Shown here: one piece after another, positions 641-22,400 of the stretch | How the letters are laid out: each line of letters opens with the position of its first letter | How positions within the stretch are numbered: position 1 is the stretch's first letter | Source: Escherichia phage vB_Eco_NicPhage | Length of the DNA stretch: 64,000 bases | Strand: one strand, 5' to 3' | Sequence record: OY726582 | Translations under genes and position numbers: made by a program | The notes under the pieces: generated by a model | Databases searched by the model: none | The model's input: the letters and a program-made list of their open reading frames with translations, nothing else | What the model was told of the DNA's origin: nothing

Positions 641-667
641 TTTATTCTCCAATTTACTCATTTCGTT

Positions 668-710
668 TCGATAGGTCTATAGTATCATATCCTAAAAGCA
701 TGTACACTAC
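668..710 (-). promoter_or_regulatory. T4-type early promoter cassette (variant -35 GTGTACA)
   Basis: Minus strand GTGTACA ... TACTATAGACCTATC upstream of gene ending at 640; member of repeated cassette family. Confidence 0.5.
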
Positions 711-758
711 TTTTTAAAAATATTTTAACCCCCTAAAGGGACCCGAAGGTCCCCACAT

Positions 759-1025
759 TTACTTATCACACTTAGCAACATAATTAGGCATATCACAGAA
801 TACAGAGCGAGTAACTACTCGACCCTTTGACCATGCTTCAGTTGCTTGTCCAGCCGTGCTATTAATATAGCTTGATTTAATGTTCTCAATACCCTGAGAA
901 TGTGATGCATTTACCGAACCGTTAGAAGGCCCAGAAGACTGGTTACCACCAGCTCCTGTACCTGTGGTAGCACCAACAGAGAATGCCATCATTACTGCGA
1001 ATAAACCAATTACTAATTTTTTCAT
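759..1025 (-). CDS. small secreted protein (N-terminal signal peptide)
   Basis: 88 aa ORF; hydrophobic N-terminus MKKLVIGLFAVMMAFSVGA; SD GAGGTAAAT before ATG. Confidence 0.5.
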   Translation of the reverse strand: MKKLVIGLFAVMMAFSVGATTGTGAGGNQSSGPSNGSVNASHSQGIENIKSSYINSTAGQATEAWSKGRVVTRSVFCDMPNYVAKCDK

Positions 1026-1056
1026 ATTTACCTCAAGTTAAGAGTTATTTATCTAC

Positions 1057-2046
1057 TTATTTATAGTAAGAATTATGATTTTCGAGATAGACTTGCTCAA
1101 GGAAATCATCCCAGAAACTCATATCTACTTTTTGTTGCATACCGTTCTTAGCGGCTTGTTCTGATGCTTGTTCTACCTGGTCAACAATGTCTTCCAGGAA
1201 TTCTTGTACAGTTTTAAACGTATGTTTACCAAGCTTAACATCGAGAATAAATGGAGCATCCTGAAGTGGGTAAACCAGGTCGCCGGTTTTGTAAATTTCC
1301 AATAATTGAAGTCCACCACGACATGCATGACTCAATGCTTTCCAGTCAATACCTTCGTTAGCTTCTGCCTTACGAGCACGTTCACCATAGTTCTCTTCCA
1401 GTTTAACCAGGATGGCATTGAACTCTTTATTGGTTAACGTATCTTGGAATTTACGGTCTAACAGATTATAGAATGTTTGCTTACCTGTTTTCTCGTTTTC
1501 GGTTTCAACCCACGAAGCAAATTCACCTACAGGCAGAACATTCTTCATATGTGATAAACGAATTACTGCACCATTATCAAAGTATTGTCCCCATTCATTA
1601 GAACGTTTAAGGGCTTGACGAAGAACAGCCAGTCGAGAACCCTTGACACCGTATTTAGAAGCTTGCTTACGGACATACCCTAAATAAGATTTCATGTTAG
1701 TGGTATAGAAACGAGACCTGTTATCTTGAATATACTTCCATACATCAGGCAAATCAGATTTAACTACTAGACTTTGTGGAGTGTGAAGCATATCTAATGC
1801 GACGGTTTCACCATCCGCAGCTAGTTTAAAGAAATATTTGAGACTATACAACTCATGGTCCACGTCGTCTTTTGTGTTCTTAGAAGATGTGTTATTCGTG
1901 TTCTTGCTCATGTGTTCTTTAACGTTACCGGTCAAGATATCACGAGCATGAGGGACATAAATTTCTTTAAAATCGACGTCAGATTCAGGAGTAGACGTTC
2001 CATAAAGGTGGCTACCAAAGTAGCCTTTCATAATTGTTTTCATCAT
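1057..2046 (-). CDS. nucleotidyltransferase-fold protein (Pol-beta-like GS...D.D motif)
   Basis: 329 aa ORF; motif GSHLYGTSTPESDVDF near N-terminus; start overlaps upstream stop (ATGA). Confidence 0.55.
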   Translation of the reverse strand: MMKTIMKGYFGSHLYGTSTPESDVDFKEIYVPHARDILTGNVKEHMSKNTNNTSSKNTKDDVDHELYSLKYFFKLAADGETVALDMLHTPQSLVVKSDLPDVWKYIQDNRSRFYTTNMKSYLGYVRKQASKYGVKGSRLAVLRQALKRSNEWGQYFDNGAVIRLSHMKNVLPVGEFASWVETENEKTGKQTFYNLLDRKFQDTLTNKEFNAILVKLEENYGERARKAEANEGIDWKALSHACRGGLQLLEIYKTGDLVYPLQDAPFILDVKLGKHTFKTVQEFLEDIVDQVEQASEQAAKNGMQQKVDMSFWDDFLEQVYLENHNSYYK

Positions 2047-2516
2047 TTAGCCTTATATTCAAGAGTAGGACAGACTTTTTCTTTACGAGCTTTAAGGTAT
2101 TCGCCTATTAATGATTTCTTACGTTCAATAGGCTCAAGTCCATTTTTAATTCGTTCTTGGTTTTGTGCAATGAGCTCAATTTCTTTATAATATTTTCTGT
2201 CGTTATATTTGTCTAACAACCAAGACGGACCAATTACCAACCCGGTAGCAATAAAAGCCATGACTGCTACAATTAAAATGCCTACACCAATTGAGGCTGG
2301 AACTAATGTCCATAGACTGCTAAAAACAAAGAATTTAGTTAAAATTTCCTGGCCAATGATTGTGACTGCTGCTAAAATCGCAAATCCAATAATTGAAGCA
2401 GCCAATACCGGGATTAGCGTTTTCCAAAAATAAGCACACAACGTTTTCGGACGATTCCATGTACTATTGAACGCGGCATAAATTTTAAAGTGCCAAGAGT
2501 TTTCATTGATAACCAT
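2043..2516 (-). CDS. small membrane protein (about 3 TM helices)
   Basis: 157 aa ORF; hydrophobic segments; SD AAGGAA before ATG. Confidence 0.5.
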   Translation of the reverse strand: MVINENSWHFKIYAAFNSTWNRPKTLCAYFWKTLIPVLAASIIGFAILAAVTIIGQEILTKFFVFSSLWTLVPASIGVGILIVAVMAFIATGLVIGPSWLLDKYNDRKYYKEIELIAQNQERIKNGLEPIERKKSLIGEYLKARKEKVCPTLEYKAK

Positions 2517-2525
2517 AATAATTCC

Positions 2526-3059
2526 TTATTTCAAAGTTGGGATAATAGAATCGAGATAAGCTTTAAGAGCAACTGCTTCATCTTTGTCTAATGTAATGAT
2601 ATGCTGACGAAGGTCATCAATTCGGCGAATAACTACGACATCACCGTCTTCATAAGAAGGATTAACGCCTAGGACTGTTGTATAGTCAGGGCGGTCCTGA
2701 TTTGTAATAAAAGCATTACGGCATTTAGCCCATTGAAGTTTGGCCTTTTTGGCTGTTTCAGATTCCATTAATTCTTTCACCTTAGTGACGAATGTTTTCC
2801 AATTATTAATAGAAAAACACTCGTCTTCAGTTTCGATATTGGCCGCGTTGTAAAGACCCGGATAAAAACGAACTTGGAGGTCTTCACCAATGTTAATTAC
2901 CTCTCGACGACGTCCAGACGGATTGAGTTTCAAAATCTTGTCCAGTTCCATAGGAAGAATAGTAGCAGCATCATCTTCTTGTGTCAGAACATACACATAA
3001 CCACGTTTTTCGATACATAAATCACCGAACAACTCGGTTGTTTCAATTACAGTTTTCAT
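2526..3059 (-). CDS. hypothetical early protein
   Basis: Track ORF begins at TTG 3071; internal ATG at 3059 (MKTVIETT) has SD GGTGA, so start adjusted. Confidence 0.5.
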   Translation of the reverse strand: MKTVIETTELFGDLCIEKRGYVYVLTQEDDAATILPMELDKILKLNPSGRRREVINIGEDLQVRFYPGLYNAANIETEDECFSINNWKTFVTKVKELMESETAKKAKLQWAKCRNAFITNQDRPDYTTVLGVNPSYEDGDVVVIRRIDDLRQHIITLDKDEAVALKAYLDSIIPTLK

Positions 3060-3060
3060 A

Positions 3061-3240
3061 TTATTCACCAATTAAAGTTTCAACAAAATTCACCAAAGCA
3101 TTCTGGCAAGCGTCAACCTGATTTTCATAAAAATCTCCGTTATCATTTACCGCATGATAAGCTACATCATTCAAATCTGAATCAGCTTCACGTAAGTCAC
3201 GGATAAGGTCCATCAATTTATTAGCTTGTTCACGGGTCAT
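3061..3240 (-). CDS. small hypothetical protein (59 aa)
   Basis: Not in track (under 60 aa); ATG at 3240 overlaps stop of an upstream 36-aa ORF (3237..3347, SD GGAGA); ends TAA just before 2526..3059 gene; downstream of an early promoter cassette. Confidence 0.3.
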   Translation of the reverse strand: MTREQANKLMDLIRDLREADSDLNDVAYHAVNDNGDFYENQVDACQNALVNFVETLIGE

Positions 3241-3365
3241 TTTACCATACTCGTTTCAATAAGATTCACTATGCCGTTTACCATGTTATAAGTAAACATC
3301 GGATAATTGTATTGTACCACAACATAAGCGATAAGCAAAAGTTTCATTTTGTTCTCCGTTTGTTT

Positions 3366-3406
3366 TGATAGGACTACTATAACATAGTCCTACCAAGATG
3401 TAAACT
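3366..3406 (-). promoter_or_regulatory. T4-type early promoter cassette with dyad GATAGGACTA...TAGTCCTA
   Basis: GTTTAC -35, about 17 bp spacer, TATAGT -10 inside 9-bp inverted repeat. Confidence 0.55.
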
Positions 3407-3614
3407 ACCGATTGTGTTTTAAATGTTGATAAAGTTCTTCAACTTGTTTTGGGTCCAAAACAATTAGGTCATTTTCTTGACGAAGATAAATCCATCCCTT
3501 ATCCCCAGGACCATTTTTACAAAACATCACCGTCGTCATATCATCATCTTCAGCGCTTTCAGGTAAAAGTTCAAGTACACCGTCTTCAGATTTTCCAGTA
3601 TAATCGTAAAGCAT
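3405..3614 (-). CDS. hypothetical protein
   Basis: Track ORF 3405..3665; internal ATG (MLYDYTGK) preceded by SD GTGAGGA chosen. Confidence 0.4.
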   Translation of the reverse strand: MLYDYTGKSEDGVLELLPESAEDDDMTTVMFCKNGPGDKGWIYLRQENDLIVLDPKQVEELYQHLKHNR

Positions 3615-3621
3615 AATATCC

Positions 3622-3801
3622 TCACATAATCTCGTTAACATACATTTGCAATTCGGTGTGGGCATCGGCCATCTTTTTCATAGCTCTGTTAATGTCGATG
3701 TCTCCATCTTCGCAACCATGAGCATTTTCCCAATCAGATACCGCATTAGCGTACTCTTCAATCAAAAACATTAACTTAGAAATTTTTTCTTTACGTGACA
3801 T
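3622..3801 (-). CDS. hypothetical protein (59 aa)
   Basis: Track ORF 3622..3870; ATG at 3801 (MSRKEKISK) preceded by SD GAGGAGAA and its own early promoter. Confidence 0.5.
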   Translation of the reverse strand: MSRKEKISKLMFLIEEYANAVSDWENAHGCEDGDIDINRAMKKMADAHTELQMYVNEIM

Positions 3802-3804
3802 AAC

Positions 3805-3858
3805 GTTCTCCTCTAGTAAGTAAGGTTTACTATAACACAACCTGAGGAGAAGTAAACT
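3805..3858 (-). promoter_or_regulatory. early promoter with anti-SD element between -35 and -10
   Basis: GTTTAC-TTCTCCTC-...TTATAGT...-GAGGAGAA(SD)-ATG; inverted repeat TTCTCCTC/GAGGAGAA. Confidence 0.55.
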
Positions 3859-3865
3859 GATAGAT

Positions 3866-3897
3866 GCCAAAAAGCCCCAACCATAAGGAAGGGGCTA
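3866..3897 (-). terminator. rho-independent terminator after rI
   Basis: Minus strand hairpin AGCCCC-TTCCTTATGGTT-GGGGCT followed by TTTTTGG. Confidence 0.65.
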
Positions 3898-5048: not shown

Positions 5049-5231
5049 TTATAGTGAATTCATGTAGTCAATGAGTTCTTGTTCTTTCCTGTCAAATGAT
5101 TCCAACAATGCTTGATATTCTTCGTCCGTCAAAGGAGCATATTCATCATACGCATTGGTGGCTGCTTGCTCATCCAATAGGTCATGGATAAGTTCAAACA
5201 GTTTAGTTTTCTCTTCTTTAGTCAATTTCAT
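5049..5231 (-). CDS. hypothetical protein (tk.1 position)
   Basis: 60 aa acidic ORF; SD AAGGTGA. Confidence 0.45.
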   Translation of the reverse strand: MKLTKEEKTKLFELIHDLLDEQAATNAYDEYAPLTDEEYQALLESFDRKEQELIDYMNSL

Positions 5232-5440
5232 TTAGGTTCACCTTCTTTAACGAAATCTGGGTAAGGGTAAAATCCTGAGTAAAACCCTTCACCTTTATGA
5301 TTGCTACAACCTTTGTTCGAACAGTAACACCAATAATCAAAATCACAAGCCATTTCGTCATTGCATAAAGCAAAAACTACAGGCCATTCGCATTTTTCGC
5401 ATTTAGCACCTGTAAGAATTTTTGTTTGACTCATAGCCAT
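5228..5440 (-). CDS. Cys-rich (zinc-binding?) small protein
   Basis: Track ORF 5228..5455 starts at TTG; ATG at 5440 (MAMSQ) has SD AAAGGTGA; multiple CxxC pairs. Confidence 0.45.
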   Translation of the reverse strand: MAMSQTKILTGAKCEKCEWPVVFALCNDEMACDFDYWCYCSNKGCSNHKGEGFYSGFYPYPDFVKEGEPK

Positions 5441-5643
5441 GTCACCTTTAAGCAATATTCTTCTACATGTTGTTTACGGCCTTTCTTATCAATAAAGGTA
5501 TATTCAACGAATGTTCCGATGTAGTCTTTATCTACATCATGTGGACTATTAATTGGACATTTAGTACGACAAATGCGTTCCCATTGACGAATAATTACTG
5601 CCTTATTCTTTGGATCGTATGGATGTGGATAATGTATATTCAT
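5431..5643 (-). CDS. hypothetical protein
   Basis: Track ORF 5431..5658 starts at TTG; internal ATG (MNIHYP) overlaps stop of upstream gene. Confidence 0.4.
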   Translation of the reverse strand: MNIHYPHPYDPKNKAVIIRQWERICRTKCPINSPHDVDKDYIGTFVEYTFIDKKGRKQHVEEYCLKVTWL

Positions 5644-6137
5644 AATAACGGTTCCCAATCAACAATCACAATTTCTAGTTTAGTAGAATACGTATCTAAA
5701 ATCTCTTCGATGACATCCCAGTTTCCACCACCAATACCTGCACCAATTCTTGGCATATAAATTACAGGCTTTATTATCTTATTCTTTCCGAATTCATTTA
5801 ATTCTATTATACAATTCATTAAAGCAGAGTACTCAAAATTAGGTCCCGGCTCAAACTGTGTATAAAGATTAAAGCAATAAGCTTTATGGGTCTTAAAATA
5901 TTTTTCATAAACCGAATAAGTCCCGAGTTTAGACTTGTCTCCGAATTCGGTTTGAAGTTTATCGGCTTCTAAAATTTTTGGATAAGCCTTTGCTAATTGG
6001 CCTGCTACACCGGCGCCCATTGTATGAAAACAATTACACCCATGAGCAATATTATTACCTTTAGAAAACAGGGCGACAATATCGCCCTTGATATAGTTTT
6101 TAATCACTTGCTGCAAGTCCTCTATTATAAGAGTCAA
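5640..6137 (-). CDS. macro-domain protein (ADP-ribose binding/processing fold)
   Basis: 165 aa; motifs NIAHGCNCFHTMGAGVAGQ and IGAGIGGGNW resemble macrodomain Gly-rich loops; apparent TTG start after in-frame TAG with GGTGGA SD. Confidence 0.6.
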   Translation of the reverse strand: MTLIIEDLQQVIKNYIKGDIVALFSKGNNIAHGCNCFHTMGAGVAGQLAKAYPKILEADKLQTEFGDKSKLGTYSVYEKYFKTHKAYCFNLYTQFEPGPNFEYSALMNCIIELNEFGKNKIIKPVIYMPRIGAGIGGGNWDVIEEILDTYSTKLEIVIVDWEPLL

Positions 6138-6986: not shown

Positions 6987-6994
6987 GTTTACCT

Positions 6995-7453
6995 CTAGAT
7001 TTTAATCACTGCTTTAGAAGCTTTTCCTGGTAGTCGTTTACTGTTAATAATAGCCATTCTACATTGAAGAGTCTTCATTTTGAATGCCGGATTTTCGCGA
7101 CAAACTGTAAGTCCTAACCAAAGATTTCCGTCAGTTATTTCTAAACGGCCTGGGCGATATTCGACACCTTCGACAAAATCTTCATCAACATCTGGACGTG
7201 CCGGCATTGATAAAAATTCTGCAACTTCTTTAACATGATTTTTTACTTTATGAAATAATTCAAAAACGTAATTCTCATCTATTTCTCTCTGGATGGCACG
7301 ATCTAAGAGATGTTGAGAATACTTGATATGAAAGCCTGGTAGTCCAAGAGACTTTGCAGCATCTTTTATACTGGCATTTATTTTGCGGAACTCCGTTTCA
7401 AAGATTCGACGGAGTTTATTACGGCGGATAAAAACGTCTGAATTGATAGTCAT
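6995..7453 (-). CDS. regB: RegB site-specific endoribonuclease
   Basis: 152 aa; high similarity to T4 RegB as recalled (MTIN..VFIRRNKLRR.FE.EFR...YSQHLLDRAIQREIDE); SD GAGGAGAA. Confidence 0.85.
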   Translation of the reverse strand: MTINSDVFIRRNKLRRIFETEFRKINASIKDAAKSLGLPGFHIKYSQHLLDRAIQREIDENYVFELFHKVKNHVKEVAEFLSMPARPDVDEDFVEGVEYRPGRLEITDGNLWLGLTVCRENPAFKMKTLQCRMAIINSKRLPGKASKAVIKI

Positions 7454-7459
7454 TTTGAT

Positions 7460-7510
7460 TTCTCCTCTAGTTGACAGGTCTATAGTAACACAACTAGAGG
7501 AGAAGTAAAC
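7460..7510 (-). promoter_or_regulatory. regB early promoter with anti-SD/SD inverted repeat
   Basis: GTTTAC-TTCTCCTCTAG-(23 bp containing TACTATAGAC)-CTAGAGGAGAA-ATCAAAATG; perfect 11-bp inverted repeat. Confidence 0.6.
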
Positions 7511-7514
7511 TACT

Positions 7515-7730
7515 TTATTGATAAAATGGAGTTAAAGCCCAAGATTCTTTAGATACCATATTGGCGAAATGCCTCATCTCTTCGATTTGGCGACGACGCT
7601 GGTCAGCATAGTCTTCTTCGCCTTCTTCCTTACAATCTTCAAGGTCTTCTTCAAGATACTTTAAGTATTCACTACAAATTTTGTTGACCTTTTCTTGAAA
7701 GTCCAATAACCCAGTAATAGTAGAAGCCAT
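7515..7730 (-). CDS. hypothetical acidic protein
   Basis: 71 aa ORF, start overlaps upstream stop. Confidence 0.45.
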   Translation of the reverse strand: MASTITGLLDFQEKVNKICSEYLKYLEEDLEDCKEEGEEDYADQRRRQIEEMRHFANMVSKESWALTPFYQ

Positions 7731-9423: not shown

Positions 9424-9599
9424 ATTATTTCTCTTAAGGTTTGGGCCATTCCGTGGCACATGTTAGGTCCTTCGACTCGCTATGTAAACCCATTACCGCA
9501 TTGCGCTCGACCTTATTACAGGTTGGAAAAGGTACATCACTCAGAGGACTCGACGTTCATGAGGAGAGGTTGCGTTCCCCTTTATTAGACAGGAATTAT

Positions 9600-9860
9600 T
9601 TAAGCTTTACCACCAGAAACAATTCCAAAGTTATCAAAATCGTATTCAATATCATCAGCATCCACTTTAGGTCCCGCTACGATGTATGCGATTTCGCGGC
9701 GCTTTGCATAGGTATTGATTTCTTTACCGTCACCACCTAAGAAAGAATATCCATTACGTTTTAATGAGCCAAAGTCTTCAGCATCACCTGCGAATGCTTT
9801 AACTTTAAATTTAGGGCCTTTAACGACTGCTTCTGTGATAAATTCTTGATACGTTTTCAT
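9600..9860 (-). CDS. internal protein (IP family, capsid-targeting leader MKTYQEFITE)
   Basis: Track ORF 9600..9872; start placed at MKTYQEF, the conserved T-even internal-protein leader cleaved by the prohead protease. Confidence 0.6.
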   Translation of the reverse strand: MKTYQEFITEAVVKGPKFKVKAFAGDAEDFGSLKRNGYSFLGGDGKEINTYAKRREIAYIVAGPKVDADDIEYDFDNFGIVSGGKA

Positions 9861-9875: not shown

Positions 9876-10289
9876 TTAGTAAATTGATTTGCCATAATAT
9901 TTGTACCAAGACGGCCGTTGAGCAATTTTTTCATCTAAGCGTGCTTGACTTATCGCAATGGACGCTTCGGACGGGTCATAATTATTACGAAATTCGGCAG
10001 GGATGTCGGAAATATCCTGGACTGTCGTGTCCTTGATTTTGAAACCACGTTTCAAGCATTCAGCGATTAGCTCGATTTGACGTAAACGTAAAAATTCGAG
10101 TTTGTCGTAAAAGAATGTTACGTGACCTGTGCCTAAGATAAATGTTGGAGGGATTTTAAAATCCTTTACACGTTTACCGTTTTGAACATGTTTACGGACT
10201 GCACCAAATACGCGTGGTAATTCACGATACTCAGCCATAAGATGTTGGTCGGCCAGTTCAGAAACAAGTGTTAAATTGATACGGGTCAT
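9876..10289 (-). CDS. denV: endonuclease V (pyrimidine-dimer DNA glycosylase)
   Basis: Near-identity to T4 EndoV from [28 protein letters not shown] onward as recalled; start moved to that ATG. Confidence 0.9.
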
Positions 10290-10347
10290 AATTTCCTCCA
10301 AGTAGTTGATGAATGTATAGTATCAAAGTCCTTGGAGGAAGTAAACA

Positions 10348-10629
10348 CTATTTTTCTGAAGCGCCTGAAATATATTTTTCAAGACGTTGTTTCATTAGCG
10401 AGCCGTTCTTAGCGATTTCTTCCGGTTTATCGCACATACGTAACAAGGCTTCAAGCTTAGCGATATCGCTGGTACGTTCAAATTTGCGAGTATCTATCTT
10501 ACTAGCAAGTTCAGAAATACGTGCTAATAGACTTTCGGCTTCAACCAAAGCTGCACCTAGCTTAGTTGCAAATGTGTCAGTAGCTTCGTTAAGAATAGAT
10601 TCTGATAAAAATTCACTATATGTTTTCAT
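10348..10629 (-). CDS. internal protein (IP family, leader [10 protein letters not shown])
   Basis: Track ORF 10348..10644; IP-type leader at internal ATG immediately after lysozyme stop. Confidence 0.55.
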
Positions 10630-13008: not shown

Positions 13009-13314
13009 TTATTTTCCTCGACATTCTTTAATGAAATTTTCTAGATTGGTAGATTCAATAGCTTTTTTACGAGCTTCTGCGTGTTCTTCTTCAGACAATT
13101 TACATTTATAATTGACCCAGACGTTATGGTCGAAACTAGTCGTGGCATATAATAACAATGCTCCAACGAATAGCAAAAACGGCGATAAGAATACAAAACC
13201 AGGAACACCATCCATACTGTAAGCCTTTTGTAATACTGCAACAGAAAGAGCTGCGTAAAAAAGTGATACAAATATTGTTAAAAGACCAATTCGGTTGGTT
13301 TCGCCTAATTTCAT
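13009..13314 (-). CDS. membrane protein with C-terminal ENFIKECR tail
   Basis: 101 aa; two TM helices; SD GAGGAGAA; preceded by early promoter cassette. Confidence 0.55.
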   Translation of the reverse strand: MKLGETNRIGLLTIFVSLFYAALSVAVLQKAYSMDGVPGFVFLSPFLLFVGALLLYATTSFDHNVWVNYKCKLSEEEHAEARKKAIESTNLENFIKECRGK

Positions 13315-13334
13315 AATATTCTCCTCATGTTTTA

Positions 13335-13378
13335 ATAGGACTACTATAACATAGTCCTATCAGTTTGTACACTTATTT
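13335..13378 (-). promoter_or_regulatory. early promoter cassette (dyad ATAGGACTAC...ATAGTCCTAT)
   Basis: Same cassette as at 3366, 14897, 21671, 22002. Confidence 0.5.
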
Positions 13379-13573
13379 TGACATTTCTTCGATGTCACGA
13401 CGATACCCATCACGAACTTCACGAAGAGCTTCAAGGCCACACATAGGCTCGATACCAGTAATGTGAACTTGATTAATCTGATACTCTACATCTTCTAACT
13501 GAGCGAAAACATAACGACGTTCTGCTGCACAACCAGGTTTAGCTTTACCGAAACGTTTATTCAAAGTAGTCAT
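13373..13573 (-). CDS. hypothetical protein
   Basis: Track ORF 13373..13591; ATG at 13573 (MTTLNKRFG) has SD GGAGAT and a promoter cassette directly upstream. Confidence 0.45.
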   Translation of the reverse strand: MTTLNKRFGKAKPGCAAERRYVFAQLEDVEYQINQVHITGIEPMCGLEALREVRDGYRRDIEEMSK

Positions 13574-13597
13574 TTTTATATCTCCATTCACTCATTT

Positions 13598-13640
13598 GTT
13601 TTGATAGGTCTATAGTATCAACAACTACAGACCTTGTAAA
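13598..13640 (-). promoter_or_regulatory. early promoter cassette (GATAGGTCTATAGTATCA variant)
   Basis: GTTTAC -35 and TACTATAGACC -10 region directly upstream of 13373..13573. Confidence 0.55.
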
Positions 13641-13653
13641 CTGTTTTGTGAAA

Positions 13654-14685
13654 TTATTTGAAAGGTTTTACCATATGAAAGTTTTGTTTGAAACGCTTGA
13701 CGTAATCGTCGTGTCCTAAGCTTTGGTACATACTTACTACTTTGCTATAATTTTCCCAAGCGAACTCACGGAACCATCCTGATGTGATTGATGTACAGAC
13801 CTTTTCAAGGGCCATCATAAAACTATCACGTGGATGGATTTCAAAGTTATTAGGAATCTGAGAACGTTCTAACGCTAGTACACATGATTCTTCGTATACG
13901 CCGGCCAATTTGACCATTTCTGGTAATGATTCGAACTTCTCGCGTGAGGTCATGACTTCAGAACCATCTTTCATATAAAATGTATACGCTGGACGGTCTG
14001 TTAGTGCAATGGCTTCGTGAATAGTATCATGATCGTATGTGTAGATGTCATCTTTAAAGAATGCGCTTTTAGAAGTGTCAAGAACCGGGTGAGCATAATT
14101 CAAAGTTTCTTTCTGGCGTTTCAGCATAATTTCAGTAAGTTCATCGTTCAGTGTAACACCTTTACCACGAAGATACTGAATATGGTTCATAGTCTTTAAA
14201 AAGAATGGATTATTTTTCTTGAAACGATGAGACATCTTAATTGCAAGACATATCTCAGGAGTTGCCCAGTAAAACCCGTTCAAACGGTCTTTAGTCAAAT
14301 TTTTCTTGGCGTATTTTAAAAGGTCATAAGAAGACGTGAAATCTTCAGGAGTGAGTTCACCGACTAATTCACGGACATTAGTGATTGCCGGAACAATATA
14401 TGCTTCAAAATGAGTTTCGCGTCCATTATGGAAGCATTTGAAAACTTGGACATCAGGGTTATCTTGGTGAACATATACACCCATCATTTGATTTTTGAAT
14501 GCATTCCAAGAACCTTGGTCCGCAATAAAGTCCCAATCACTATTTTTAATAGCGCTAGAATCAATAAGACCGTGATAGTGAAGTGCACGAGAACCAATAA
14601 CTAACATCATAATATTTTCCTCGGAGTAATTCATTAACTTAAATTTCACGACATGCGATATTATATTCATCCCAGAGGTCATCAT
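13654..14685 (-). CDS. nucleotidyltransferase-fold-like protein
   Basis: 343 aa; motif VIGSRALHYHGLIDSSAIKNSDWDF resembles Pol-beta NTase GS...D.D; weak. Confidence 0.45.
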   Translation of the reverse strand: MMTSGMNIISHVVKFKLMNYSEENIMMLVIGSRALHYHGLIDSSAIKNSDWDFIADQGSWNAFKNQMMGVYVHQDNPDVQVFKCFHNGRETHFEAYIVPAITNVRELVGELTPEDFTSSYDLLKYAKKNLTKDRLNGFYWATPEICLAIKMSHRFKKNNPFFLKTMNHIQYLRGKGVTLNDELTEIMLKRQKETLNYAHPVLDTSKSAFFKDDIYTYDHDTIHEAIALTDRPAYTFYMKDGSEVMTSREKFESLPEMVKLAGVYEESCVLALERSQIPNNFEIHPRDSFMMALEKVCTSITSGWFREFAWENYSKVVSMYQSLGHDDYVKRFKQNFHMVKPFK

Positions 14686-14890
14686 GTGAAGCCTCTACCA
14701 ATGGAACGATTGTACCGTTTATGTCTTCATTATAAGGGCAAATTGTACAGTGCGCATCTTCGAATCGGATGCCTTTGTGTTCAGATTTTTTATAACGCAT
14801 ATCGAATATCTTTGCAAACTTTTCACGAGTAATGGTTTTAGCAACCACTTTAGTTCCGATACTTTCGTAATAAATCATTGTGGACTCCAT
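14639..14890 (-). CDS. hypothetical protein (Cys/His-containing)
   Basis: 83 aa ORF immediately downstream of early promoter cassette. Confidence 0.4.
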   Translation of the reverse strand: MESTMIYYESIGTKVVAKTITREKFAKIFDMRYKKSEHKGIRFEDAHCTICPYNEDINGTIVPLVEASHDDLWDEYNIACREI

Positions 14891-14896
14891 TTGTTT

Positions 14897-14937
14897 TGAT
14901 AGGACTACTATAACATAGCCCTATCTTGTTGTAAACT
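14897..14937 (-). promoter_or_regulatory. early promoter cassette
   Basis: GTTTAC ... dyad GATAGGACTACTATAACATAGCCCTATC. Confidence 0.55.
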
Positions 14938-14940
14938 GTT

Positions 14941-15138
14941 TTAGCAAGAATAACTAGATGATACCCAGCCTTGAACAGTGATACTATTGTGGGATAATGA
15001 GATCGCGTCCTGGAGATTCAGACCTGCGTTATCTTCAATCCATAATGTAACTTCTTCGCGTTCTTCTGTTGCAATTTGGAACAGGTTTTCCAGAGCAGCT
15101 ACTGCCGTACGTACAGCACAATCTAATTCACGAGACAT
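14941..15138 (-). CDS. small protein, paralog 1 of W-V-S-S-S-x-x-C tail family
   Basis: 65 aa; ends QGWVSSSYSC; ATG with SD GGAAACA. Confidence 0.5.
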   Translation of the reverse strand: MSRELDCAVRTAVAALENLFQIATEEREEVTLWIEDNAGLNLQDAISLSHNSITVQGWVSSSYSC

Positions 15139-15735: not shown

Positions 15736-16091
15736 TTTCTACATTCCTTAATAAAGTTTTCTATTGTTTCATTTTCACGTCTAGCTAGGAGTTCATTATA
15801 ACTAATCATTTGAGAAGCGTAAACCTTTTTATTTTTCTTGTTATGGTTTATAAAATCGTAGTAAAAATAGACTACAGTACAAAATGATGCGATGGATGCA
15901 AAGGCTTGGGTATACCGTAAGTCTTGCCATTGGTCTGTGAATCCACCAGTGTTCCCTATAAATCCTAACACAACGCCGTCAATAAGAAATCCAACTAATC
16001 CAAAGGCAAATCCCACGCCAATACTTATAATAAAAATTAGAATGTTCTCACCAAGAGAAGGCCATACGGTTAAGAGTTGAGGCTTTTGCAT
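15732..16091 (-). CDS. membrane protein with C-terminal ENFIKECRK tail
   Basis: 119 aa; 2-3 TM helices; SD AAGGAAAT. Confidence 0.5.
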   Translation of the reverse strand: MQKPQLLTVWPSLGENILIFIISIGVGFAFGLVGFLIDGVVLGFIGNTGGFTDQWQDLRYTQAFASIASFCTVVYFYYDFINHNKKNKKVYASQMISYNELLARRENETIENFIKECRK

Positions 16092-17679: not shown

Positions 17680-17749
17680 ATTATTACCTTTCAATTGGTG
17701 GTTTATTATCCAACGAGAGCATTATACTCTGCTCTCAAGAGTTTGTAAA

Positions 17750-17977
17750 TTATTTTTTAATCAAATTGACATAAAACTTGGCGTCTTCTGGGTGCATGCC
17801 TTCGCAGTATTCTTCAACCATGAACTTCTTAACAGCTTCATAAGGACCACTCAGATTAAGCTCAGTTGTCCAGAACTTGGAATCTTGGGCTGAATCGATA
17901 TGAACTTCAGGGTGACGGTTGCGAATAACTTCTTCTGTGTATTCATAATCAACGACATCAATACTAACTTTAGCCAT
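17750..17977 (-). CDS. hypothetical protein
   Basis: 75 aa; SD GAGAGGAAAA; promoter cassette upstream. Confidence 0.5.
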   Translation of the reverse strand: MAKVSIDVVDYEYTEEVIRNRHPEVHIDSAQDSKFWTTELNLSGPYEAVKKFMVEEYCEGMHPEDAKFYVNLIKK

Positions 17978-17997
17978 TTTATTTTCCTCTCATTTTA

Positions 17998-18040
17998 TTT
18001 GATAGGTCTATAGTAACACCGTCCTTGGTGTTTGTACATC
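17998..18040 (-). promoter_or_regulatory. early promoter cassette (variant -35)
   Basis: TGTACAAAC ... GTGTTACTATAGACCTATC upstream of 17750..17977. Confidence 0.5.
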
Positions 18041-18542
18041 ATTTATTTTTAATTTTGCAAATTTTTCCAGCTTCAATGCACGCAGCATAGATGATGCTCT
18101 GGGCAATTTTATTGCTAGTGGACCTTGCAATCACACTAAGAACAATTTCTTTTTCTTCACCACCACATCCCCAGCTATTTTGCCCATGTGTACCTTTAAC
18201 TACGGCTGAAACTTCAACAGAACGTCCACCATCAGAAGTCTTAACATCCACAACCCAATCACCGTCTTTCTCATTAACCTGTGGTTTATCCCAAGAAATA
18301 CTAATATATGATTCACCGTCAATAGAAGTCGCCGGGTTTTTCTCTACAGTAAGACCTTCGCTTTCTAACCATTCAATAGTATTTGAGCATAAATCTGTAG
18401 AACATCTCATCGGAAAGCGGCATGATTTTTCACCTTTAGATGCAGCATCATACATCTTTTCCAAAATACGCTTTTGTACATTTTTAAAAACAACGTCACG
18501 CGATTCTTCAGATTTTTTATTCAGTTCAGTATAAAGACTCAT
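18039..18542 (-). CDS. hypothetical protein
   Basis: 167 aa; SD GAGGAAAA; promoter cassette upstream. Confidence 0.5.
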   Translation of the reverse strand: MSLYTELNKKSEESRDVVFKNVQKRILEKMYDAASKGEKSCRFPMRCSTDLCSNTIEWLESEGLTVEKNPATSIDGESYISISWDKPQVNEKDGDWVVDVKTSDGGRSVEVSAVVKGTHGQNSWGCGGEEKEIVLSVIARSTSNKIAQSIIYAACIEAGKICKIKNK

Positions 18543-18561
18543 AATGTTTTCCTCATTTGTT

Positions 18562-18602
18562 TTGATAGGTCTATAGTATCATACCTCAAGGAGAAGTAAA
18601 CA
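18562..18602 (-). promoter_or_regulatory. early promoter cassette
   Basis: GTTTAC-TTCTCCTTGAGG...GATACTATAGACCTATC upstream of 18039..18542. Confidence 0.55.
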
Positions 18603-18631
18603 ACTTTGTGAAAAATTTATCTGCCCTAGAT

Positions 18632-18665
18632 GCCCGAAAGCCCCAACCATAGGAAGGGGCTTAAG
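18632..18665 (-). terminator. hairpin (weak terminator) after IPIII-like gene
   Basis: Same AGCCCC...GGGGCT hairpin as at 3866 but poor U-tract. Confidence 0.4.
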
Positions 18666-19306: not shown

Positions 19307-19341
19307 TGATGGTCCTTAGAAAGTAGGTTTATTGTTTACTA

Positions 19342-19349
19342 TATTTATA
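19342..19349 (-). promoter_or_regulatory. late promoter (TATAAATA) for IPIII-like gene
   Basis: Exact TATAAATA on minus strand about 35 nt upstream of ATG at 19306. Confidence 0.55.
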
Positions 19350-19350
19350 C

Positions 19351-19380
19351 AAAAAAGCCCCAACCTTTCGGAAGGGGCTA
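19351..19380 (-). terminator. rho-independent terminator at end of tRNA/stable-RNA unit
   Basis: Minus strand AGCCCC-TTCCGAAAGGTT-GGGGCT + TTTTTTG. Confidence 0.7.
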
Positions 19381-19680
19381 TATACCTTGTCGGGGTTTCC
19401 ACCTACTAGGTAAGTGTTTGTACGAAACGCCGGGATTTGAACCCGGTTATTATGTAGTTGACGCTACTCAATATTTTAAAAGGCCATATCTCGACCATAT
19501 CCGAACGTTCCGTCAAAAACGCTACTCGGCTTACGGCAAAGATATTTCCTCGAATCGATAATTCTGTGCGCCGTTTCTGCTGTGATGTAAGGGGATATTA
19601 ACAAATCATAAAGATTTATTAAGACCAGTCCTTACTCAGGGAACATCAGTCCGACGTCTTGCCGGTAGCGACCCGGCTTC
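19381..19680 (-). ncRNA. candidate small stable RNA(s) with tRNA-like T-arm (possible counterpart of T4 species 1/2 RNAs)
   Basis: About 300 bp with no ORF of 60 aa or more on either strand in a densely packed genome; flanked by tRNAs and a strong terminator; contains CCGGGTTCAAATCCCGG and repeated GAGTAGCGT. Confidence 0.3.
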
Positions 19681-20025
19681 TTATTTTGGCATATCGTCAA
19701 TTTGCTCTCGACGCCGACGCCATAGATTAATCGCTTCATAGGCACATTCTGCGTTTGGTATATGACGGCAATAATATAATGATTCGCGTTTCTGGAACCG
19801 ATGTTGCAACGGGATTTCGTTTAAAAGGTCTTTACGGTCAAAGTATTCAAAACTAGTTAACCCAGAACGGTTTTTAAGAAACTTCCAATGTCCGAATTCA
19901 TTTTGAAAATAAACATAATCAGCATGCTGATACAGCGAATTAATTAACCTATCGGAAATAACTGTTTCACGTTCGTTAAAATAAAACGTTAAGTCATGAA
20001 CTACCAGATAAATATTGCCTTTCAT
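19681..20025 (-). CDS. hypothetical protein between tRNA genes and putative stable-RNA region
   Basis: Track ORF 19681..20073 would overlap tRNA-Arg; ATG at 20025 (MKGNIYLVV) with SD GAGGAAAA chosen. Confidence 0.45.
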   Translation of the reverse strand: MKGNIYLVVHDLTFYFNERETVISDRLINSLYQHADYVYFQNEFGHWKFLKNRSGLTSFEYFDRKDLLNEIPLQHRFQKRESLYYCRHIPNAECAYEAINLWRRRREQIDDMPK

Positions 20026-20043
20026 ATTTTCCTCACTTGAAGT

Positions 20044-20120
<77 letters not shown>

Positions 20121-20123
20121 GAT

Positions 20124-20200
20124 TGGTGACCCAGACCAGATTCGAACTGGTAACCTTTCCCTTATGAGGGGACTGCTGCTAACCGTTGAGCTACAGGGCC
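20124..20200 (-). tRNA. tRNA with CAU anticodon (Ile2-type or Met)
   Basis: 77-nt cloverleaf: GGCCCTG acceptor, anticodon loop CUCAUAA, T-arm ACCAG-TTCGAAT-CTGGT, encoded CCA; 5' half resembles E. coli ileX as recalled. Confidence 0.75.
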
Positions 20201-20279
20201 TAAATAACTTTCTATTATGAAAGGCACTTTAGAGCACCTTTGGTAATAGAGGGTATGAATTAATAATAACACATAATTC

Positions 20280-20795
20280 TTAAAGCAAATCAATCATTTT
20301 AACAGTTGGCAAAACGATTTCTTCTTCAATATAAGCAAATTCAACACATTCAACTACACGCAAGAAATCATAATCATAATATTCAGAAGCATGACCAAGA
20401 ATACCAATGAGACCTTCTGATACCAAATATCCATTCTCATGGAACAGGTCGAATACACGCGATTCGTCTTCTTCAGATTTATTACCGAGGTCGACTTCAA
20501 TATCAAAGACCTTTTTAATGAATTCTGGATAAAGCTGGTCTGAGAACAGTCCTTCAACCAAGTATTCATAGATTAAAAGCGAACAATCACTGAATAGTGT
20601 ATTACCACAGTAACGTTCAGCTTTAGTGCTGGAATGACGGCTCTTAAATTTCTTTAAGAGATATTTAAACTGTTGGAGCTCATGCTCTTCTACACCAAAT
20701 AATGTTTTGGTTTTATAGTTGTCGCCGTCATTTTCCCAAGTAGTGACATCAATTACGTAACCTTTAGGAATTGTACTGCCTAAACAAATATTCAT
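20280..20795 (-). CDS. hypothetical acidic protein
   Basis: 171 aa ORF. Confidence 0.5.
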   Translation of the reverse strand: MNICLGSTIPKGYVIDVTTWENDGDNYKTKTLFGVEEHELQQFKYLLKKFKSRHSSTKAERYCGNTLFSDCSLLIYEYLVEGLFSDQLYPEFIKKVFDIEVDLGNKSEEDESRVFDLFHENGYLVSEGLIGILGHASEYYDYDFLRVVECVEFAYIEEEIVLPTVKMIDLL

Positions 20796-20799
20796 TTAC

Positions 20800-21090
20800 T
20801 CACCGTACCATATTAATGTAATTATATTCAATGCAACGTAATTTCAAAGGATTCTTGAAAATATCATATTCAAGAGGGCCTTTTTCTGTTTCAACAAAGA
20901 AATCGAAGTTAACGCTGTTAAATTTACGGTCTTCCCAGAGTAATTTAACTTGCGAAGACGAACGGTCGATATAAACCTTTTCAACCACGAAGTTGGTCAG
21001 AATACCATAGTCATCGACTAGTGCTTTAGCTGCAGCTCGGTCGCTTTCATATCCGTTCTCGACAGATTTTACTTTAGCATAAAGAATCAT
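20800..21090 (-). CDS. hypothetical protein
   Basis: 96 aa ORF. Confidence 0.45.
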   Translation of the reverse strand: MILYAKVKSVENGYESDRAAAKALVDDYGILTNFVVEKVYIDRSSSQVKLLWEDRKFNSVNFDFFVETEKGPLEYDIFKNPLKLRCIEYNYINMVR

Positions 21091-21458
21091 GAATGTTCCA
21101 CCATTTCAAAGGTACGAGCATCAACAATATGATACCAGTCAAAATTTTCTTCCGCGTTTTTATAAATTTCGCGAAGAGCTTCAACAGTTTTTCCTGTAGC
21201 AACAAGGTCGTCAATACCACCAAGAGGATAACAGTCATAACCAGCAAACAGAAGGAAATTAATAGTTTCTGTAGGTTCTGTAGGTTCTGGATGCAGAACA
21301 CCATTATCATCTACTACTTCAAAGAATGTGTAAGAAGGAGTACAAGTTTTAATCCAGGCCCATGCTTGAGCTGCTGAATCAAACGGATTACGGAATAAAC
21401 GACAATCCGGGTCTTTAGAAGGATTTGCTTCAAAATCCGCATATATGTGATATTTCAT
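21087..21458 (-). CDS. hypothetical protein (contains PEPTEPTE repeat)
   Basis: Track ORF 21087..21476; ATG (MKYHIY) with SD AAGGTGAG. Confidence 0.5.
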   Translation of the reverse strand: MKYHIYADFEANPSKDPDCRLFRNPFDSAAQAWAWIKTCTPSYTFFEVVDDNGVLHPEPTEPTETINFLLFAGYDCYPLGGIDDLVATGKTVEALREIYKNAEENFDWYHIVDARTFEMVEHS

Positions 21459-21459
21459 T

Positions 21460-21645
21460 TTACTCACCTTTTGCAATTTTATCCATAACGATAGCGATTA
21501 AGCCGATTAGAAATGCTACTACCAATGAGATAGAGTTTTCAGTTGTTGTCAGTAGTCCGCAAATGAATCCTACAAACATCGAAAAACTAAAAGCCATTGA
21601 AGCAATTACTACAGCAACATTACGAATCAGTTCAGCGCGTTTCAT
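21460..21645 (-). CDS. small membrane protein
   Basis: Track ORF 21460..21666; ATG (MKRAELIR) with SD GGAGAAAT; two hydrophobic helices. Confidence 0.45.
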   Translation of the reverse strand: MKRAELIRNVAVVIASMAFSFSMFVGFICGLLTTTENSISLVVAFLIGLIAIVMDKIAKGE

Positions 21646-21670
21646 TTTATTTCTCCATTTACTCATTTGA

Positions 21671-21712
21671 TTTGATAGGACTACTATAACATAGTCCTAT
21701 CATCATGTAAAC
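21671..21712 (-). promoter_or_regulatory. early promoter cassette
   Basis: GTTTAC ... dyad GATAGGACTACTATAACATAGTCCTATC upstream of 21460..21645. Confidence 0.55.
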
Positions 21713-21714
21713 TA

Positions 21715-21978
21715 TTAAATACCAGCTTCGCGTTTAACATAATCGACGTAAGCTTGGATAGCTTTCTTGCTGGTAATTTTTACCTGGCCTCGTCCGTTGC
21801 CTTCTTTAGAGTTTTTCTTAACAACTACATTACCATCTTTAACACCCCATACATGGACATAAGTACCGATGTTTCGGTCGTAGAACATTGCATGGTCGTT
21901 GTTGTAAGAGAATGATTCGTAGTTCTCTGACAGAGTAGAAGATTGAGATTCAGCGATAAATTCTTTATAGGTTTTCAT
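21715..21978 (-). CDS. internal protein (IP family, leader MKTYKEFIAE)
   Basis: 87 aa; IP leader; own promoter cassette upstream. Confidence 0.6.
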   Translation of the reverse strand: MKTYKEFIAESQSSTLSENYESFSYNNDHAMFYDRNIGTYVHVWGVKDGNVVVKKNSKEGNGRGQVKITSKKAIQAYVDYVKREAGI

Positions 21979-22001
21979 TTGTTTTTCCGTTTGGTTGTTG
22001 A

Positions 22002-22042
22002 TTTGATAGGACTACTATAACATAGTCCTATCAGCATGTAAA
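22002..22042 (-). promoter_or_regulatory. early promoter cassette upstream of IP gene
   Basis: Identical 28-bp dyad and GTTTAC as at 21671. Confidence 0.55.
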
Positions 22043-22046
22043 CTAC

Positions 22047-22334
22047 TTACAGAAGAGTTTTTGCAATAATTTTAAGCTGAGCTACAGAAATATGCTTAGC
22101 TTTAAACAGTGCGGTCTCTTCGGCCGGAGAGATAACAACAGTAGCGCCATCTTTCTTAGCAGACCATCCATCCCCTAAGTAAACAGTACCTTTTACTTCT
22201 TCACCATCAACCAGACTAATCATCGGTTTACCCTCACGTCCTTTATTTGCTTTAATAACTTCGGAAGTAAGGGTTGCTTCGGTCAGAGTAGAAACGTTAG
22301 CAACAGGTGATATAAATTCTTTATAGGTTTTCAT
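22047..22334 (-). CDS. internal protein, IPI-position (leader MKTYKEFI)
   Basis: 95 aa; IP leader; immediately upstream of 57B as ipI is in T4. Confidence 0.6.
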   Translation of the reverse strand: MKTYKEFISPVANVSTLTEATLTSEVIKANKGREGKPMISLVDGEEVKGTVYLGDGWSAKKDGATVVISPAEETALFKAKHISVAQLKIIAKTLL

Positions 22335-22357
22335 TTTATTTCCTTGAGGTCGTTTAT

Positions 22358-22400
22358 TTGATAGGATGATAGTAACACACCATCGTCCTTATGTAAACTG
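22358..22400 (-). promoter_or_regulatory. early promoter cassette upstream of ipI-like gene
   Basis: GTTTAC ... imperfect dyad AGGATGAT...ATCGTCCT. Confidence 0.5.

Follow-up and report, generated by a model that had tools for sequence, protein, structure and literature searches.

Promoter-early stem-loop (PeSL) elements are repeated intergenic cassettes made of an A/T-rich upstream stretch, an early promoter and, at the 3′ end, a Shine-Dalgarno (SD) sequence and an ATG, with a stem-loop that lies between or over the -35 and -10 elements, just before the start, or just upstream of the promoter (PMC2839356, PMC4122927). They have been described for RB49/phi1 (Arbiol et al. 2010, PMC2839356) and for T4/PST and KVP40/nt-1 (Comeau et al. 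2014, PMC4122927). They are found mainly in hyperplastic regions beside variable open reading frames (ORFs), with crossovers inside them, and their authors distinguished five positional subclasses of stem-loop, all before the start, marked the G-T pairs and proposed a terminator or attenuator role (PMC2839356, PMC4122927). Phage T4 also carries promoters placed inside hairpins, which gate e, soc, 49, I-TevI, mobE and segB and in which the internal promoter is late or middle; the regB promoter is called just "a typical early promoter" in the same source (PMC3014915). The early promoters of RB69 were predicted genome-wide (Nolan et al. 2006, PMC1524935), and for T-even phages, repeats that flank the internal protein (IP) genes are attributed to Repoila et al. 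1994 (cited in PMC2839356); the RB69-derived annotation of a relative records 43-bp direct repeats flanking IP genes. Here we analyse a family of PeSL-like repeats in a stretch of 64,000 nucleotides (the window) of Escherichia phage vB_Eco_NicPhage, sequence record OY726582. We consider it probable that these repeats are the early-gene expression cassettes of the phage lineage, that they double as recombination modules, and that the hairpins embedded in them insulate genes from read-through RNA.

The family has 14 members, all on the minus strand, named here by the coordinate of the first base of the -35: 707, 3405, 3857, 7510, 10346, 13372, 13641, 14936, 18039, 18601, 21712, 22043, 22398 and 55603. 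The motif GTTTAC-N15-19-TAYDRT had 13 matches in the window, all on the minus strand, as compared to a mean of 0.98 in dinucleotide shuffles, none of which (0 of 100) reached 13. The sites at 668, 13335 and 17998 escaped this strict motif because of a variant -35 (GTGTAC, GTGTAC and ATGTAC, respectively); they are in register and are the same element. From the 14 clear copies we built an nhmmer profile, which re-found them at E<=1e-8, as expected by construction, and the informative result is the gap behind them, since the best match beyond the 14 in the window had only E=0.05. A first-pass annotation had listed about 13 near-identical copies. Motif and profile search confirmed every site on its list and added one that it had overlooked, the copy upstream of denV (10346). 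"Near-identical" suits only the five GATAGGACTA...TAGTCCTATC copies, which are nearly alike; across the family, two copies have a mean identity of 0.53 (range 0.23-0.94) over the 48-nt core. Sites 15824 and 58449 were tried as copies and rejected, being promoter-like but without the conserved downstream module.

Promoter-like sites that lack the downstream block lie at 15795-15824 and 17721-17749 on the minus strand; position 15824 is the exact edge of a 250-bp segment missing from phages p000v and phiC120, and the site at 17749 departs from the sigma-70 consensus at one of 12 positions.

Thirteen of the 14 copies fall within the early accessory region (0.6-22.4 kb) and none within the late block at 26-55 kb. 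The remaining one, 55603, stands beside an ORFan between genes 23 and 24, where the first-pass annotation had correctly placed a late-region copy driving an ORF among the capsid genes; the ORF has 89 aa and lies on the minus strand. All copies are 5′ of minus-strand early-region ORFs in the correct orientation, and the first genes downstream encode mostly small proteins without assigned function, plus regB, denV and ipI.

On the minus strand, each cassette consists of an A/T-rich upstream stretch, the -35, a 17-18 bp spacer, TG, the -10, an AG(A/T)CCTATCAAA block, a leader, the SD and the ATG, with the consensus aAA.taGTTTAC-N9-G..T.TGtTAcwaT-AGaCCTATCAAA.caAa. The upstream stretch is A-rich and UP-like and usually overlaps the end of the preceding ORF (the 30 nt upstream have 57-83% A+T, as compared to 62% window-wide). 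The earlier description of a GTTTAC -35 followed by a spacer of about 17 bp largely stands: the spacer is 17-18 bp in 14/14, and the -35 is GTTTAC in 11/14, GTGTAC in 2/14 and ATGTAC in 1/14. Also invariant in all 14 are the TG at -15/-14, a -10 of the form TAnnnT (TATAGT or TACTAT), and the presence of SD and ATG behind an A-rich, unstructured leader of 20-35 nt. The start was placed 7 nt past the -10, by analogy with T4 and RB69, and the conserved AG(A/T)CCTATCAAA block spans it. The copies match the published logo of RB69 early promoters, including C at -3 to -1 (PMC1524935), which puts the start at the A of CCTATC. Judging by this consensus and by published work on RB69 and T4 promoters, host sigma-70 RNA polymerase would be expected to fire the cassette promoters immediately after infection. 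The T4 RefSeq record has no promoter features annotated at the orthologous sites, and in the full-text literature we found no start-site maps for the Mosigvirus lineage.

The AG(A/T)CCTATCAAA block (-6 to +7, for example 7481-7469) is kept with or without a hairpin, and the T4 denV promoter has the same block; it might be a discriminator, an initial transcribed sequence or an RNA signal. Ten of the 14 cassettes, that of regB itself among them, have GGAG, the cleavage motif of the RegB endoribonuclease, in their SD; those without it are the IP-gene cassettes 22043 and 22398, and 18039 and 18601.

The copies and the hairpins in and beside them are listed below, each cassette with the gene it is predicted to drive. 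Hairpins were tested by folding from the spacer to the ATG and comparing the result with versions in which the spacer alone was shuffled (z); dG is the folding free energy.

638..732, minus strand: cassette 707, for nrdC.10 (the gene runs off the window start); -35 GTGTAC 707-702, -10 TACTAT 684-679, start ~672, SD GGAG 650-647, ATG 640-638; no embedded hairpin (z +0.4)
735..754, minus strand: terminator-type hairpin GGGGACC-UUCG-GGUCCC, then UUU, directly upstream of cassette 707
3345..3430, minus strand: cassette 3405, for a 36-aa ORF and then tk.1; -35 3405-3400 (overlapped by the stop codon of the preceding ORF), -10 TATAGT 3381-3376, start ~3369, ATG 3347
3396-3384 / 3377-3365, minus strand: helix of cassette 3405, 13 bp across the -10 (dG -18.0, z -6.1)
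3799..3882, minus strand: cassette 3857, for mobD.2a (59 aa)
3851-3844 / 3813-3806, minus strand: helix of cassette 3857, spacer arm TTCTCCTC with SD GAGGAGAA, 8 bp, marginal (dG -13.7, z -1.8)
3869..3896, minus strand: intrinsic terminator AGCCCCTTCC-loop-GGTTGGGGCT, then TTTTT, 15 nt upstream of the -35 of cassette 3857
7451..7535, minus strand: cassette 7510, for regB; -35 7510-7505, -10 TACTAT 7487-7482, start ~7475, ATG 7453
7504-7491 / 7473-7460, minus strand: helix of cassette 7510, spacer arm TTCTCCTCTAGTTG with SD arm CAACTAGAGGAGAA, 14 bp (dG -21.4 kcal/mol, z -5.7)
10287..10371, minus strand: cassette 10346, for denV; start ~10310
10340-10331 / 10302-10293, minus strand: helix of cassette 10346, spacer arm TTCCTCCAAG with SD arm CTTGGAGGAA, 10 bp (dG -17.6 kcal/mol, z -5.8)
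13312..13397, minus strand: cassette 13372, for a homologue of RB69ORF133c (101 aa); -35 GTGTAC
13362-13351 / 13344-13333, minus strand: helix of cassette 13372, 12 bp across the -10 (z -7.1)
13571..13666, minus strand: cassette 13641, for a 66-aa ORF missing from RB69, p000v and phiC120
13634-13624 / 13616-13606, minus strand: helix of cassette 13641, AGGTCTGTAGT with ACTATAGACCT, 11 bp in a shifted register (z -4.4)
14876..14961, minus strand: cassette 14936, for a homologue of RB69ORF135c (79 aa)
14925-14915 / 14908-14898, minus strand: helix of cassette 14936, 5′ arm GATAGGGCTAT, 11 bp across the -10 with one G·U pair (z -5.4)
17975..18064, minus strand: cassette 18039, for frd.3 (75 aa); -35 ATGTAC
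18032-18027 / 18020-18015, minus strand: small hairpin within the spacer of cassette 18039 (z -3.8)
18540..18626, minus strand: cassette 18601, for a 167-aa ORF without assigned function; no significant embedded hairpin (z -0.8)
18637..18661, minus strand: terminator-type hairpin AGCCCCTTCC-loop-GGTTGGGGCT, then TTT, upstream of cassette 18601 and of the same family as 3869-3896
21643..21737, minus strand: cassette 21712, for tRNA.4 (61-68 aa)
21702-21691 / 21684-21673, minus strand: helix of cassette 21712, 12 bp across the -10 (z -6.1)
21976..22068, minus strand: cassette 22043, for an 87-aa internal-protein-like ORF
22033-22022 / 22015-22004, minus strand: helix of cassette 22043, 12 bp across the -10 (z -6.0)
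22332..22423, minus strand: cassette 22398, for ipI (IPI*, nuclease inhibitor, 95 aa; PF11634, 3e-50)
22389-22378 / 22374-22363, minus strand: helix of cassette 22398, across the -10, marginal (dG -11.0, z -1.8)
55541..55628, minus strand: cassette 55603, for the 89-aa ORFan at 55274-55543, which lies between gene 23 (major capsid) and gene 24 (vertex) on the strand opposite to theirs; no embedded hairpin (z -0.1) and no co-directional gene upstream

The dyad symmetry of these elements is not a single conserved palindrome: in about two thirds of the copies the spacer pairs downstream, either with the -10/+1 block or with the SD region. A significant embedded hairpin is present in 9 of the 14 copies (z -3.8 to -7.1). 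Six of these (3405, 13372, 13641, 14936, 21712 and 22043) have a helix of 11-13 bp that straddles the -10 (-15.5 to -18.2 kcal/mol, z -4.4 to -7.1); its 5′ arm is in the spacer, and its 3′ arm starts at the end of the -10 and reaches about +3. In two others, 7510 (regB) and 10346 (denV), the stretch directly after the -35 pairs with the SD region, and in 18039 the hairpin is internal to the spacer. Two copies are marginal (3857 with an anti-SD helix, 22398 with one straddling the -10) and three (707, 18601 and 55603) have no hairpin. The first-pass annotation had put the -10 inside an inverted repeat, which is thus right for six copies and marginally for 22398, while the others pair elsewhere or have no hairpin. 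One of its two example dyads, TTGATA...TATCAA, had to be dropped: this is a 5-6 bp palindrome with a 9-nt loop and negligible predicted stability, and RNAfold never picks it.

Comparison with public sequences indicates that the helices are under selection for pairing. We used 109 unique cassette variants collected by pattern search, of which 103 could be classified, together with promoters orthologous to those of regB and denV in public viral contigs. In the spacer-shuffle test, 46 of the 103 variants reached an empirical p<=0.01, as compared to 1 expected. Within the -10-straddling class the two arms covary, spacer GGACT occurring with TAGTCC 18 times and GGTCT with TAGACC 12 times, with no cross-combinations (18:0:0:12). 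At denV, 33 unique promoter-leaders hold at least 9 distinct helix sequences, such as TTCCTCCAAG/CTTGGAGGAA, TCTCCTGTAG/CTACAGGAGA, ATCTCCGTTTG/CAAACGGAGAT, GATGTCTTC/GGAGGACATC and TAGTAGCCTT/GGAGGCTACTA. The regB helix covaries among orthologues, including that of T4. Column-wise covariation on a MAFFT alignment of regB proved unsuitable and was dropped, because the arms differ in length and register and the columns are not homologous; it was replaced by a comparison of cognate with non-cognate duplexes. The duplex of the spacer arm with its cognate SD averaged -13.8 kcal/mol at denV, as compared to -8.3 kcal/mol for non-cognate pairs, and the cognate was the best of all partners in 20/33 cases; at regB the means were -18.1 and -11.6 kcal/mol, and the cognate was best in 6/8. 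In several lineages the anti-SD arm lies over the -10/discriminator instead of beside the -35, and still ends at or before the predicted start. The same design is found in T4, where the regB promoter reads GTTTAC-TTTTCCTCTTGACTG...CAGTTAAGAGGAGAA (-23.1 kcal/mol, with the -10 in the loop), the denV promoter folds at -18.0 kcal/mol and carries the TACTATAGACCTATCAAC block, and the ipII promoter has a 14-bp helix across its -10.

In other lineages, regB and denV promoters among them, there are -10-straddling helices with unrelated sequences (GGGCCAT/ATGGCCC, GATAGGGT/ACCCTATC and one of 15 bp around a loop of 3 nt), in which the architecture is kept and the sequence is not.

The strand on which the helices are read leaves a trace in their G·U pairs. 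The strong -10-straddling helices contain 49 such pairs in the sense orientation and 20 in the antisense, and the strong SD helices 10 and 2, respectively. The -10 class is also more stable in sense, with a minimum free energy (MFE) of -14.9 vs -11.7 kcal/mol (3.2 more stable; p=5e-7). These figures bear on the idea that a dimeric protein of phage or host shuts off early promoters by using the dyad over the -10 as its DNA operator, or that the dyad is a cruciform or recombination signal in double-stranded DNA. Six copies have their dyad centred on the -10, the shut-off of T4 early promoters is described as incompletely understood (PMC3014915), and the PeSL authors speculated on a DNA-binding recombination protein. 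However, sequence and register vary while pairing is kept (GGACTA, GGTCTA, GGGCCAT, AATTGTGA, anti-SD arms), which is typical of structure, G·U pairs are favoured on one strand only, and the hairpin is missing behind an upstream terminator (see below), a dependence not expected of an operator. We regard an operator or cruciform as very improbable; an operator for a protein, or a DNA cruciform with its symmetry, fits poorly with the varying helix sequence and register and the sense G·U bias, which together favour a structure that the sense strand forms.

All the hairpins have their 5′ arm upstream of the predicted start, and the promoter's own transcript has a folding energy of about 0 kcal/mol; among the public variants the own leaders have a mean MFE of -0.44 kcal/mol, with 95% at or above -2 kcal/mol. 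A hairpin with its 5′ arm upstream of the start would form only in RNA initiated further upstream, and would thereby insulate the gene. If both arms are present only in such transcripts, cassettes that stand behind a terminator should not need a hairpin, and this prediction holds. Counting as a terminator any intrinsic terminator no more than 50 nt upstream of the -35, 124 unique contexts comprised 4 with both elements, 59 with the embedded hairpin only, 27 with the terminator only and 34 with neither (odds ratio 0.085, p=8e-7), and 85 collapsed contexts comprised 2, 37, 19 and 27, respectively (p=1e-4), where the copies are related by descent, so that these Fisher p-values are inflated and the collapsing of clusters corrects them partly. 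In the window, all 9 hairpin cassettes adjoin a preceding stop codon (-1 to 12 nt before the -35); 3857 and 18601, marginal or hairpin-less, follow copies of the terminator AGCCCCUUCC-loop-GGUUGGGGCU, and 707 follows GGGGACC-UUCG-GGUCCC-UUU. Of these upstream terminators, the one at 3869-3896 has both hairpin and U-run, and those at 735-754 and 18637-18661 have them weakly. Taken together, the embedded hairpins most likely act on read-through RNA.

The AGCCCCTTCC-loop-GGTTGGGGCT terminator with its T-run is itself a repeat with three copies (3869-3896, 18637-18661 and ~19360-19390), and related versions precede cassettes in other phages.

Exclusivity with canonical terminators would fit equally well if the embedded stem-loops were, as the PeSL authors proposed, terminators or attenuators for incoming RNA polymerase and not translational gates. 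The hairpins stand directly after the stop codon of the preceding ORF, and one RB49 PeSL stem-loop cut expression of a downstream lacZ as much as rrnB T1 did (PMC2839356). However, no embedded hairpin in the window is followed by a U-run, the sequence next to it being A-rich (AUCAAAACAAA or AAAUCAAAAUG), and a terminator scan of the window detected none of them. Termination also leaves unexplained why the 3′ arm at regB and denV is the SD and why it covaries with the spacer across genera. We judge termination an unlikely, though serious, explanation of the embedded hairpins.

If the hairpins insulate genes from read-through RNA, as we favour, the own transcript of each promoter, lacking the 5′ arm, could not fold the hairpin and would stay open to ribosomes. 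Only RNA entering from an upstream promoter would fold it, and the gene would be insulated from upstream transcription. The SD-pairing type (regB, denV and, weakly, mobD.2a) would keep ribosomes from initiating on read-through RNA by hiding their binding site, the -10-straddling type could be an attenuator, a processing signal or a 3′-end stabiliser, and a genuine terminator ahead of the promoter would make the hairpin dispensable, and usually absent. A wider version of this proposal is possible but doubtful: T4-type early promoters may commonly lie inside a hairpin, regB and denV may be translated only from their own early-promoter RNA, confined to the first minutes, with RNA that reads in from early or middle promoters further upstream kept silent, and hairpins and terminators may be interchangeable insulators that let cassettes shuffle undisturbed.

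By its sequence, the source of the window is an RB69/JS09-like Mosigvirus, a T4-type coliphage. Nucleotides 1-24000 match Escherichia phage vB_EcoM_G53 (Mosigvirus) best, with 97.7% identity, and are 94-97% identical to JS09, ATK47, p000v, phiC120 and RB69, all Mosigvirus, Tevenvirinae; 158 public records were listed at 95-99% identity in the database comparison. The minus-strand gene order is nrdC.10, nrdC.11, mobD.1, tk.1, mobD.2a, rI, tk, vs, regB, vs.3-8, an IP gene, denV, e, nudE, e.2-e.6, frd.3, tRNAs, tRNA.2-4, IP genes, 57B, 57A, 1 and 3, and this block is followed by plus-strand late baseplate and head genes. An Rfam scan of the window gave no family at gathering score apart from two tRNAs (20047-20200).

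Alignments of the window to six relatives show, in clear individual cases and not as a statistical enrichment, that small accessory ORFs have been deleted, inserted and swapped, apparently by homologous recombination between cassettes, which as short direct repeats would shuffle the ORFs that they flank. The clearest case is a stretch of 262 bp at 13372-13635, which holds one 66-aa ORF, is missing from RB69, p000v and phiC120, and is bounded precisely by cassettes 13372 and 13641. The single cassette that the relatives have at this place is a chimera, with its upstream half as in 13641 and its downstream half as in 13372, joined at the -35. Replacements of IP genes are bounded by cassettes 21712, 22043 and 22398, with edges at 21656 and 21714-21716 for the first of these, and the homology at the swaps reaches ~25 nt into the shared N-terminus. 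Other replacement edges lie in, or no more than 7 bp from, cassettes 707 (left edge, at 700, of a 358-bp replacement relative to RB69 and phiC120), 7510 (edge at 7514), 18039 (edges at 17971-18018, inside the cassette) and 18601 (edges at 18557 and 18660). The 109 public variants comprise 52 spacer clusters, of which 20 occur with at least two different leaders, and in three cases all four combinations are found.

The breakpoints of the IP swaps at 21949 and 22312 lie 22-29 nt inside the ORFs, in the common MKTY... N-terminus, so that the recombining block of homology is the cassette plus about the first 10 codons. Elsewhere, position 9599 is the most recurrent indel point, where 6/6 relatives have 730-1060 bp extra (IP genes); it falls in an unusually G+C-rich intergenic stretch of 140 nt (9460-9600, minus strand) between vs.8 and a 90-aa IP-like ORF, with no cassette and no Rfam match. 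At 20044-20153, p000v (its 21006-21674) has a homing-endonuclease gene in place of the tRNA-Arg(TCT) of the window.

An association of cassettes with variable ORF content, which the first-pass annotation named as a check on shuffling, is seen in the 262-bp indel and the IP-gene swaps, and not as an excess over gene boundaries in general. Clusters of breakpoints fell in cassettes in 8/28 cases, which is above random positions (p=1e-4) but not significantly above random gene boundaries, 13/62 of which bear a cassette (p=0.22), and indels at 5052-5650, 9599 and 20044 have no cassette. Both results count against cassettes as recombination modules, and agree with the simpler idea that the repeats are merely strong early promoters, whose dyads are by-products of cassette copying and which indels adjoin as they do gene boundaries generally. 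The near identity of the five class-A copies, which fits recent duplication, agrees with it as well. This idea does not account for a chimeric junction exactly at the -35, for four-gamete combinations among spacer and leader halves, for the tuning of spacer order to the downstream sequence in 46/103 variants, for at least 9 covarying helices at denV orthologues in a design shared by T4, or for the near mutual exclusion of hairpins and upstream terminators, and we give it a slim chance.

Besides the common descent of the copies, several other points weigh against insulation by the embedded hairpins. The SD class as a whole has no sense energy advantage (-8.9 vs -9.4 kcal/mol), its G·U bias being in the strong members alone. 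The G·U asymmetry could be that of sense RNA or, formally, of the non-template DNA strand, between which it cannot distinguish. As the start was set by analogy, a shift of 2-3 nt would place part of some 5′ arms in the own transcript. The -10-straddling hairpin has no contact with the SD and no U-run after it. Finally, a ribosome terminating 0-4 nt before the -35 might melt the 5′ arm, in which case the SD hairpin would couple and not block: the ribosome that ends at the upstream stop would free the SD, and the downstream gene would be translated only with the upstream ORF. Cassettes 7510 and 10346 have the upstream stop codon 1-4 nt ahead of the -35, and the 5′ arm begins directly after the -35, inside the footprint of a terminating ribosome. 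However, lineages with the arm over the -10/discriminator (~25 nt past the -35) put it outside this footprint, and such coupling is inapplicable to the -10-straddling class; we see a small chance that it explains the SD-pairing hairpins. Insulation from read-through RNA remains the reading that we prefer.

The PeSL reading of the cassettes is supported at the level of sequence, with promoter activity, terminator activity and mini-circle formation putative, and the likeness noted in the first-pass annotation holds for the sequence features of the published definition, although not every copy has all of them. Nine of the 14 copies have an embedded stem-loop, 707, 3857 and 18601 have a terminator-type hairpin upstream, 22398 has a marginal one only, and 55603 has neither. 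Cassette anatomy and hyperplastic location are the same as in the published systems, individual crossovers inside the cassette resemble those described there, and the T4/PST consensus TTTACW-N17-TAYWAT fits the copies here. The RB69-type Mosigvirus lineage is outside the two PeSL papers; its stem-loops are A/T-richer than the GGGG...CCCC type of RB49 and lack a U-run, they include an SD-pairing subset that is unmentioned in PMC2839356 and PMC4122927, and embedded hairpins and upstream terminators act here as alternatives. Our results are largely confirmatory in that they extend the PeSL concept to the Mosigvirus coliphages of RB69 type, a group widely isolated for phage therapy, and they provide examples, resolved to the base, of accessory ORFs gained and lost through cassettes. 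Covariation, strand-specific G·U bias and exclusivity with terminators argue, in addition, that the PeSL stem-loop works on RNA from upstream; if true, this would explain how densely packed, freely shuffled gene cassettes are insulated from one another.

The RB69 early promoters predicted by Nolan et al. (PMC1524935) have the same GTTTAC -35 and TAnnnT -10, are likewise GT-rich before -12 and A-rich from -40 to -44 with C at -3 to -1, and likewise lie 5′ of orthologues of T4 early genes and of novel ORFs; that paper gives the logo and coordinates only, with 0 mentions of dyads, stem-loops or recombination. As with the IP-gene repeats of T-even phages, cassettes 21712, 22043 and 22398 flank IP genes that differ between relatives, but the family here also precedes regB, denV, frd.3, nrdC.10 and several ORFans.

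In the full-text literature we found no early-promoter-embedded hairpins that sequester the SD, although older literature might contain a mention of such hairpins, those of the regB and denV promoters included; the SD-pairing subclass, the covariation and the exclusivity with terminators, as we read them from sequence, were likewise not found described before. The nearest relatives of this subclass are the T4 gates of e, soc, 49 and I-TevI, where the SD is sequestered in the same way by a helix with its 5′ strand upstream of the promoter start, long transcripts are silent and transcripts from the internal promoter are translated. In the window the SD lies in such a helix at 7510 and 10346, and marginally at 3857, but not in the six -10-straddling copies. 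The late or middle promoter of the T4 gates delays expression, whereas the early promoter of regB, denV and mobD.2a, with a function to which covariation alone points, would limit translation to the early-promoter period. If true, this would add to the classical promoter-in-hairpin gates of T4 an early-promoter version, the mirror image of the late-promoter gates of e, soc and I-TevI.

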